Source of the DNA: Dictyostelium discoideum
Taxonomy: Eukaryota
Assembly: GCA_000004695.1 (NCBI GenBank)
Contig: CM000151.3
Span: 8,288,001 to 8,352,000 of the forward strand
Direction: 5' to 3'
DNA: 64,000 nucleotides
Shown here: one piece after another, positions 15,966 through 16,769 of the stretch
Numbering within the stretch: position 1 is the stretch's first letter
Layout: every line of letters starts with the position of its first letter
Translations under genes and position numbers: made by a program
The notes under the pieces: model-generated
Told to the model about the DNA's origin: nothing
Database searches by the model: none
Seen by the model: the letters and a program-made list of their open reading frames with translations, nothing else

Positions 15966-16012
15966 ACAGTTGACGGGGGGTTTCTTAGAAGAATTGCTGT
16001 AAGGTCAACTTA
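15966..16012 (-). ncRNA. Class I ncRNA gene (dictyostelid-specific small RNA), copy 1
   Basis: The minus strand reads AAGTTGACCTTACAGCAATTCTTCTAAGAAACCCCCCGTCAACTGT. The 5' stem GTTGAC pairs with the 3' GTCAAC, and is immediately followed by the conserved 11-nt motif CCTTACAGCAA. A TGTG box (AAATGTGAAAA) lies about 25-35 nt upstream on minus, at plus 16035-16045. A DUSE-like TTCCACAA lies about 90 nt upstream, at plus 16102-16109. The RNA would be about 47 nt. Confidence 0.55.
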
Positions 16013-16122
16013 ATTATGTGGTAAATGTATTTTTTTTTTTTCACATTTAAAAAAAAGGATTATTAATAAATTATTTAAGAATTTTTAAACAAAAAATAAT
16101 TTTGTGGAATAACTGATCTCTG

Positions 16123-16164
<42 letters not shown>

Positions 16165-16314
16165 ATGTTTGGGTCTATTAAAAAAAAATTTTTTTTTTGT
16201 TGGTTTATTTATGTTTAGCCATTAATGGCAATATATCTTTTTTTTATTTTTTTTTTTATTTTTTTTGTTTTTTTTTCACCCATAATCAGAAAAAAAAAAA
16301 AAATAAAATAATAG

Positions 16315-16372
16315 ACAGTTGACAGGGGGTTTTCTTTTTATGTAGAGAATGAATTGCTGTAAGGTCAACTTA
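16315..16372 (-). ncRNA. Class I ncRNA gene, copy 2
   Basis: The minus strand reads AAGTTGACCTTACAGCAATTCATTCTCTACATAAAAAGAAAACCCCCTGTCAACTGTCT, about 58 nt. It has the same stem and the same CCTTACAGCAA motif. A TGTG box AAATGTGAAAAG lies upstream at plus 16393-16404. A perfect DUSE TCCCACAA lies about 83 nt upstream at plus 16454-16461. Confidence 0.55.
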
Positions 16373-16769
16373 ATTGTTTTATGATTACTTTTCACATTTT
16401 CTCATTTAATTTAAAAATAATATATTTCCCAATTTTATAAATAAAAAAAAAATTTGTGGGATAAATAATAATAAAACAACCAAGTTCCATTCTTATAAAA
16501 TTACCAAATATTCAAGTTTTGCAAACTTTTTTTTTTTTTTTTATTCAATGGCTTTTTTTTTTTTATTACTTTTTTTATTATTACTTTTTTTTATTGATTA
16601 ATTATTTTTTTTTATTTTATTTTAATTTTATTTTTATTTTTTATTTTTTATTTAAAGAATTCTTTTTTAAAGTCATCGATTTTGGTATTGAAAAATGGAA
16701 ATAAAAAAAAATATAAAAAAAAAAATAAATATAAATGTACTAATGCCTTGAATTTAAAGTGAAATCCTA

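Follow-up and report, generated by a model that had tools for sequence, protein, structure and literature searches.

The Class I RNAs of Dictyostelium discoideum are small non-coding RNAs (ncRNAs) that were treated in earlier work (Aspegren et al. 2004 and Avesson et al. 2011, as cited by Kjellin et al. 2021) and were surveyed across 16 dictyostelid genomes in 2021 (Kjellin et al. 2021, Genome Res 31:436, PMC7919456; below Kjellin et al., 2021). Their genes are intergenic and often form clusters of at least two non-identical members, and among the surveyed genomes just DdR-47 and DdR-50 were shared between species, with D. firmibasis (Kjellin et al., 2021). The RNAs are cytoplasmic, and the authors propose that they act by sequestering proteins or by pairing with mRNAs. 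Experimental evidence exists for the type member DdR-21 alone, namely a knockout phenotype, structure probing and binding to Rnp1A (CIBP), a protein with an RNA recognition motif; loss of DdR-21 disturbs early multicellular development and results in more and smaller fruiting bodies (Kjellin et al., 2021). Here, we describe a pair of minus-strand Class I loci in a 64,000-nucleotide (nt) stretch of D. discoideum chromosome 2 (GenBank CM000151.3, positions 8,288,001 to 8,352,000), called the window below and numbered from its first letter.

Two upstream elements accompany these genes. In D. discoideum the Dictyostelium upstream sequence element (DUSE), [AT]CCCA[CT]AA, lies about 60 nt upstream of the TGTG box, while the distance from the TGTG box to the RNA is variable: DUSE distances range from 56 to 90 nt, TGTG distances from 8 to 33 nt, and the inter-distance is mostly 57-61 nt, with DdR-21 having the DUSE TCCCACAA at 90, AAATGTG at 29 and an inter-distance of 61 (Kjellin et al., 2021, Table S2). 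Other small RNA genes of D. discoideum that depend on the DUSE, such as those of spliceosomal snRNAs, share the [AT]CCCA[CT]AA element and likewise occur as tight pairs of closely related genes, but in them the roughly 60 nt separate the DUSE from the start site. The TGTG box has been described at Class I loci alone, in Group 4 dictyostelids and in the P. violaceum complex, and the authors left open whether it acts as a promoter element or marks where a precursor starts. A DUSE precedes every expressed Class I gene, and high-scoring loci without a correctly placed DUSE are unexpressed, which the authors take as an argument that the DUSE is required. From the T-runs downstream of many Class I genes they suggest transcription by RNA polymerase III (Pol III) (Kjellin et al., 2021).

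Identity of the two loci

The preliminary description of this DNA had recognized two loci with the architecture of Class I RNAs. When the covariance model Rfam RF01414 (Dicty_Class_I_RNA) was run, it matched 16316-16369(-) with 51.8 bits (E = 4e-07) and 15967-16009(-) with 43.7 bits (E = 4.5e-05); both loci span the full model and exceed its gathering score of 41.5 bits. The 54-mer and the 43-mer are base-for-base identical to DdR-29 and DdR-45, respectively, in the curated D. discoideum FASTA file supplied with Kjellin et al. (2021); the covariance scores published there for the two genes are 48.1 and 40, at the authors' thresholds of 15 to 25. In Table S3 of that survey DdR-29 is placed at 8304314-8304369(-) and DdR-45 at 8303965-8304009(-) of DDB0232429 (chromosome 2). 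The database annotation file (GFF) supplied with the survey lists r29 as DDB_G0295535, chr2 8304316-8304369(-), with the cDNA accession AJ699390, and r45 as DDB_G0295533, chr2 8303967-8304009(-), without a cDNA accession. The Rfam matches and the annotation differ by a constant offset, chromosome coordinates being window position + 8,288,000, and strand and spacing agree. As neither gene is one of the two RNAs that the survey found shared between species, the match to both also fixes the species. The two RNA starts are 360 nt apart; the preliminary description, which was right about the strand, had given 350 bp.

With high confidence the pair therefore represents the annotated Class I RNA genes DdR-29 and DdR-45 on the minus strand of AX4 chromosome 2, with DdR-45 lying downstream of DdR-29. 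This degree of confidence is meant for the favored explanation as a whole, that is identity, layout and expression contrast together with what is deduced below about DdR-45 and a leader. Although the pair had been described as invisible to the track of open reading frames (ORFs), and no ORF of at least 80 amino acids overlaps it, both genes were already known: they are in the database annotation, are recognized by the Rfam model and were tabulated with coordinates and read counts in the 2021 survey. As a discovery the pair thus carries little weight, since both genes were annotated before. It does show that a lineage-restricted ncRNA family and its promoter grammar are recognizable from raw sequence alone. 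What is added to the known record is a corrected DUSE assignment for DdR-45, the absence of DdR-45 from close relatives and the conservation of the DdR-29 promoter.

The covariance model gives a length of 54 nt for the DdR-29 RNA (16315-16369(-); GTTGACCTTACAGCAATTCATTCTCTACATAAAAAGAAAACCCCCTGTCAACTGT) and of 43 nt for the DdR-45 RNA (15966-16009(-); GTTGACCTTACAGCAATTCTTCTAAGAAACCCCCCGTCAACTGT); counting the final U of CUGU, the lengths are 55 and 44 nt, respectively. These values replace the 47-58 nt estimated earlier and fall within the 42-65 nt of typical D. discoideum members. As had been noticed, the ends pair: both loci carry GTTGAC at the 5' end and GTCAAC followed by TG(T) at the 3' end, with 6/6 stem pairs. 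Among the 34 published D. discoideum sequences, stem pairs 2-5 occur as alternative Watson-Crick types (UA, CG, GC), but DdR-29 and DdR-45 both have the commonest stem and contribute no covariation. The 11-nt motif CCTTACAGCAA (RNA form CCUUACAGCAA) is intact and exact in both RNAs, as it is in 27/34 published D. discoideum members; it does not follow the 5' stem, as had been assumed, but starts on the last base of the 6-bp stem and thus overlaps it by one base. A third match was not found in the 64 kb even at one mismatch, and in shuffled sequence the mean was 0.43 matches, with at least two matches in 10/100 shuffles. DdR-21 shares the GUUGAC/GUCAAC stem, the motif and the promoter layout with both loci and differs in the variable region.

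Both loci read ...TTAA|G across the mature 5' end and genomic CTGT at the 3' end. Their GC content (0.45 in DdR-45, 0.38 in DdR-29) stands against 0.176 in the surrounding intergenic DNA. Apart from the 6-bp terminal stem there is little structure, and the fold z-scores are -2.34 for DdR-45 and -0.68 for DdR-29; such modest folding fits a family defined by a short stem and an unstructured conserved motif. Permissive Rfam scans (E = 10 around the locus, E = 1 across the window) revealed no further Class I copies.

Promoter architecture and the degenerate DUSE of DdR-45

Distances were scripted from the sequence and gave 85/24/61 for DdR-29 and 93/33/60 for DdR-45 (DUSE, TGTG box and inter-distance). 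The DUSE of DdR-29, TCCCACAA, lies at 16454-16461(-), its last base 85 nt upstream of the RNA start, and the TGTG box AAATGTG lies at 16393-16399(-), where its last base precedes the RNA start by 24 nt and follows the DUSE by 61 nt; Table S2 lists the same 85, 24 and 61 (Kjellin et al., 2021). This gene therefore has an exact DUSE about 60 nt upstream of its TGTG box. In DdR-45 the TGTG box AAATGTG is found at 16042-16048(-), its last base 33 nt upstream of the RNA start as in Table S2, and a degenerate octamer, TTCCACAA, at 16102-16109(-), where its last base precedes the RNA start by 93 nt and the TGTG box by 60 nt. Both TGTG distances lie within the species range. The longer string AAATGTGAAAA, reported earlier as TGTG-box-like, is exact at 16038-16048(-) and 16389-16399(-) and occurs nowhere else in the window. 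The two DUSE calls, perfect in DdR-29 and TTCCACAA in DdR-45, likewise stood, both at the kind of position indicated. Their spacing had been flagged as odd, but distances of -85 and -93 are ordinary and match the documented D. discoideum arrangement, because the spacing of about 60 nt refers to the TGTG box and not to the mature 5' end.

Between TGTG box and mature 5' end, DdR-29 has 23 nt (16370-16392(-)) that end in the conserved AA and could be proximal promoter or the 5' leader of a precursor; the corresponding stretch of DdR-45 is 32 nt long and ends in ...TTAA. Terminator-like T-runs of the kind used by Pol III follow both RNAs, a T4 and a T14 run 3' of DdR-29 (16290-16308(-)) and a T20 run directly 3' of DdR-45 (15945-15964(-)). 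A further run of 35 nt (16123-16157, T35 on the minus strand) lies between the genes, 13 nt upstream of the TTCCACAA of DdR-45, and would stop any Pol III read-through from DdR-29.

DUSE octamers as such are not enriched in the window (6 exact observed vs 10.65 expected; 185 vs 203 at up to one mismatch), and their evidential value therefore lies in placement relative to the TGTG box. An exact DUSE at the correct distance is absent from DdR-45. The published classifier assigned to this gene the octamer TACCACAT at distance 7 and flagged it DUSE=0 (Tables S2 and S3), using a pipeline that takes the best-scoring octamer within 150 nt and that recorded an inter-distance of -26; the authors still curated DdR-45 as a Class I gene from its RNA features (Kjellin et al., 2021). 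An inter-distance of -26 is nonsensical and TACCACAT is misplaced. TTCCACAA differs from TCCCACAA by one C-to-T change at the first C of the CCC core and is in register with the DdR-29 DUSE when the two promoters are aligned. Its context, TA-TTCCACAA-AATTATTTTT, matches the extended DUSE 20-mer TA-TCCCACAA-AATTATTTTT at 19/20 positions, the flank AATTATTTTT following the octamer in 10/20 D. discoideum TCCCACAA-type sites in the authors' MEME output (Kjellin et al., 2021). At up to one mismatch the DdR-45 site is the sole match to the 20-mer in the window, where even at up to three mismatches 0.37 would be expected, and a DUSE with up to one mismatch would fall at offsets 57-61 by chance with a probability of about 0.005-0.007. 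Because of its canonical 60-nt offset, its register with DdR-29, its extended flanks and the 19/20 match, TTCCACAA is a better DUSE call than TACCACAT. DdR-45 is best read not as a gene without a DUSE but as one whose DUSE carries a single C-to-T lesion at the canonical position. This is the sole discrepancy with the published annotation (TACCACAT at 7 vs TTCCACAA 60 nt from the TGTG box); sequence, strand, 360-nt spacing, coordinates, the DdR-29 DUSE and both TGTG distances were all reproduced.

Conservation at the syntenic site

Syntenic loci were found via orthologues of a neighboring RPC4-like protein on long contigs of four assemblies: GCA_054859385.1, which is labelled D. discoideum (L001), D. 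citrinum GCA_054859145.1 (L002), D. dimigraforme GCA_054859025.1 (L003) and D. firmibasis (L004). The order RPC4, NDUFS4 and then a gap is kept in 4/4 loci. In the gap of L001 there is one Class I gene, 12951-13003(-), a 53-nt orthologue of DdR-29 with identical 85/24 geometry (47.4 bits). It was listed by the gathering-mode Rfam scan and missed by the permissive E-value scan, which looks like a quirk of the scan filters; a motif scan confirmed the match. On the minus strand of the D. citrinum gap, four Class I genes lie within 6 kb (12924-12976, 15129-15180, 16170-16221 and 18838-18891). Each has TCCCACAA and AAATGTG at a separation of 60 nt, and the one nearest NDUFS4 is the DdR-29 orthologue as judged by promoter homology, again with the 85/24 geometry intact. 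The copy at 16170-16221, which has a GTTGGC stem, is not in the gathering-threshold Rfam list and was found by the motif scan. In the 2021 survey no Class I clusters were reported for D. citrinum, which was attributed to assembly quality (Kjellin et al., 2021); the newer assembly thus reveals a four-gene cluster where that survey had none. D. firmibasis has one Class I gene in the gap, equal to the published DfiR-11. In D. dimigraforme, which retains the flanking genes, no Class I gene was found in the gap (about 12400-13600) or in the rest of the 21-kb locus, and the DdR-29 slot seems to have been lost there.

When the DdR-29 unit was compared with L001 and D. citrinum, respectively, identity was 8/8 and 8/8 for the DUSE, 50/54 and 41/54 for the spacer between DUSE and TGTG box, 7/7 and 7/7 for the TGTG box, 22/23 and 20/23 for the stretch between TGTG box and RNA, and 49/55 and 45/55 for the RNA. 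DdR-29 with its promoter, including the stretch between TGTG box and RNA, is thus conserved across the D. discoideum / D. citrinum clade, whereas DdR-45 is not: neither L001 nor D. citrinum has a counterpart of the block of about 305 nt (about 15,870-16,175) in which DdR-45 and its promoter are located, while the sequence on both sides of the block is about 90-95% identical. The T35 run marks the upstream edge of this block. A decayed DdR-45 relic in L001, as an alignment by MAFFT might suggest, was rejected, since 60/500 and 63/500 dinucleotide shuffles scored as well. A clean insertion between two T-runs was not recovered either; an affine-gap alignment gave well-aligned flanks and a fragmentary middle, with no single clean indel.

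Among the sampled genomes DdR-45 is specific to the lineage of the window. Gain of the gene would be more parsimonious than loss, given its absence from D. citrinum as well. That DdR-45 still looks perfect in its RNA part may simply reflect a young gene, although its age is a guess.

The preliminary description had called the two genes distinct family members and not a recent duplication, and this view was upheld. A recent tandem duplication of DdR-29 giving DdR-45 was not established: the similarity of the promoter spacers, matched by 260/2000 shuffles and by 295/4674 real AT-rich segments, is not significant, and the relationship of the RNAs is marginal, DdR-29 being marginally the nearest relative of DdR-45 but not vice versa. 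In its extended DUSE context, DdR-45 is closer to r21, r24-26, r49, r51, r52, r32 and r62 than to DdR-29.

The L001 and window sequences seem to differ by more than the shared species label would suggest. The RPC4 orthologue has 96% protein identity, and the DdR-29 orthologue differs at 6/55 aligned columns. Such divergence seems high for one species, and GCA_054859385.1 could come from a divergent isolate, or from a cryptic or mislabelled species.

Expression of DdR-29 and silence of DdR-45

In six published RNA-seq libraries (0, 4 and 8 h of development) DdR-29 reached 41,922-76,311 reads per library and was flagged as expressed, whereas DdR-45 gave 0, 0, 0, 1, 0 and 3 reads and was flagged in Table S3 with DUSE=0, TGTG-box=0 and read coverage=0 (Kjellin et al., 2021). 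These published data show that DdR-29 is abundant in growing and early-developing cells and that DdR-45 is without detectable expression. In the same libraries other short Class I RNAs were detected, namely DdR-44 (44 nt; 1,617-3,610 reads) and DdR-42 (45 nt; 61-606 reads), and size alone therefore does not account for the silence of DdR-45. From the published correlation between DUSE and expression we infer that DdR-45 may be silenced by the T found at the first position of the CCC core in its DUSE.

Several observations weigh against this account of DdR-45 as a lineage-specific gene silenced by its DUSE lesion. The expression evidence comes from one published data set, limited to 0, 4 and 8 h of development. 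DdR-45 combines the longest TGTG-to-RNA distance of the species (33) with the second-shortest RNA. DdR-62 (42 nt) combines a DUSE and a TGTG box that are both perfect with near silence (0-10 reads), and DdR-57 and DdR-64 have acceptable promoters and no reads; DdR-50, on the other hand, lacks a recognizable DUSE and yet gives 69-117 reads, so that DUSE dependence is not absolute (Kjellin et al., 2021). Lastly, the absence of DdR-45 from the relatives could be due to loss there instead of gain in AX4.

The alternative that survives best is that the DdR-45 RNA is transcribed but unstable, or that the gene is silent for reasons other than its DUSE, candidates being a short 18-nt variable region that would block protein binding and the 33-nt distance between TGTG box and RNA that would block correct initiation or processing. 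That DdR-62 is barely read although its DUSE and TGTG box stand at the right distances, that DdR-57 and DdR-64 are likewise unread, and that 33 is the largest TGTG distance in the D. discoideum table all speak for it. DdR-44 and DdR-42, however, were detected despite their shortness, DdR-21 and DdR-51 are expressed with a TGTG distance of 29, and, in view of the published correlation of DUSE and expression (Kjellin et al., 2021), a lesion at precisely the canonical DUSE position explains the silence most simply. On balance, we regard this alternative as unlikely.

Still less probable is that both copies are active, with TTCCACAA a functional DUSE variant and DdR-45 expressed outside the sampled stages and conditions, for example late in development, in spores or under stress. 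In favor of this, DdR-45 shows no defect in its RNA part (an exact 11-nt motif, 6/6 pairs, CUGU and a T20 terminator, preceded by a perfect AAATGTG), DUSEs with two Cs such as AACCATAA are used in other dictyostelid groups (Kjellin et al., 2021), and the libraries counted cover the three early time points alone. Against this stand the 0-3 reads of DdR-45 in six libraries that yielded 10^4-10^6 reads for sibling genes, and the CCC core present in the DUSE of nearly all expressed D. discoideum Class I genes of Table S2, to which the weak DdR-50 is the clear exception. Furthermore, r45 has no cDNA accession and its locus is not conserved in close relatives.

With a single-base DUSE lesion in the right place, DdR-45 offers a ready natural test of DUSE function. 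We tentatively suggest that it could be a young copy of the AX4 lineage whose sole visible lesion is the C-to-T change in the DUSE core; as such it would represent a natural point mutant for the CCC requirement, and at the same time a snapshot of the birth of a Class I gene, by insertion of a unit reaching from promoter to terminator, and of its death. If this is true, DdR-45 would show that D. discoideum needs the CCC triplet for DUSE-dependent transcription.

Proposed transcription unit and function

Each gene has the anatomy of a small transcription unit of its own, in which the DUSE is followed after about 60 nt by AAATGTG and, after a further 23 nt (DdR-29) or 32 nt (DdR-45), by the mature 5' G. 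The RNA consists of a 6-bp terminal stem that closes a largely unstructured loop, with CCUUACAGCAA beginning at the last base of the stem, and ends in CUGU ahead of the T-run. Transcription may initiate at or near the TGTG box, with subsequent removal of a short leader. We lean slightly toward this model over one in which the TGTG box is a proximal promoter element, because the distance between DUSE and TGTG box is fixed at 59-61 nt throughout the family, that between TGTG box and RNA varies from 8 to 33 nt, and the DUSE elsewhere lies about 60 nt from start sites. The conserved 23-nt stretch in the DdR-29 orthologues is compatible with a leader and with a proximal promoter alike. As for function, family membership suggests, in line with the published hypothesis, that DdR-29 is most likely one of many redundant protein-binding RNAs that would buffer Rnp1A or its partners.

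Plus-strand octamer and other DUSE matches

A perfect ACCCATAA on the plus strand had been reported at 16279-16286; the octamer is present and exact, but its coordinates are 16278-16285. It lies 30 nt past the 3' end of DdR-29 and is directed into this gene. We considered it very improbable that it is a working DUSE for an antisense or convergent transcript over DdR-29. It does fit the DUSE consensus exactly and has the matching orientation, but exact DUSE octamers are no commoner in the window than in shuffles, neither a TGTG box nor an Rfam-detectable RNA was found about 60 nt downstream, and the octamer is not conserved, reading AACCATAA in L001 and being deleted in D. citrinum while the flanking sequence is alignable in both. 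As it is neither enriched nor conserved, it was rejected as a functional element and is best treated as consistent with chance.

That the DdR-29 and DdR-45 motifs themselves are chance matches in AT-rich intergenic DNA can be dismissed despite low-complexity surroundings and the unremarkable fold of DdR-29 (z = -0.68), as this reading is refuted by the E-values of 4e-07 and 4.5e-05, by identity to the cloned cDNA AJ699390 and to RNA-seq-validated genes, and by conserved orthologues with invariant promoter elements.

The other exact DUSE octamers of the window, at 8684(-), 30438(+), 34448(-) and 46812(-), have nothing recognizable about 60 nt downstream, and two of them lie in coding-like sequence. 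The exact ACCCATAA at 46812-46819(-) is situated in AT-rich, apparently intergenic DNA with a long T-run about 70 nt downstream and no match to an Rfam family; it could be a chance occurrence or belong to an undescribed DUSE-driven small RNA.

Genomic neighborhood

The RNA pair sits in the intergenic gap between an NDUFS4-like gene and an RPS27-like exon. The flanking features are an NDUFS4-like exon at 14904-15401(+) (PF04800) and a ribosomal protein S27e exon at 17882-17992(+) (PF01667), and both ORFs look like single exons of spliced genes. About 1.4 kb from the pair, at 13710-14591(+), lies an RPC4-like gene (PF05132, E = 3.7e-24) that encodes a Pol III subunit; its ORF is probably one exon of a spliced gene, and its arrangement is syntenic in all five genomes. 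The proximity of a Pol III subunit gene to two putatively Pol III-transcribed genes is almost certainly a coincidence. Elsewhere in the window, a run of 100 N at 24445-24544 is presumably an assembly gap or a masked stretch, and a tRNA-His (GTG) gene is located at 2826-2897(+) (65 bits against the Rfam tRNA model), the same tRNA sequence being present in the D. dimigraforme locus L003 at 1637-1707.

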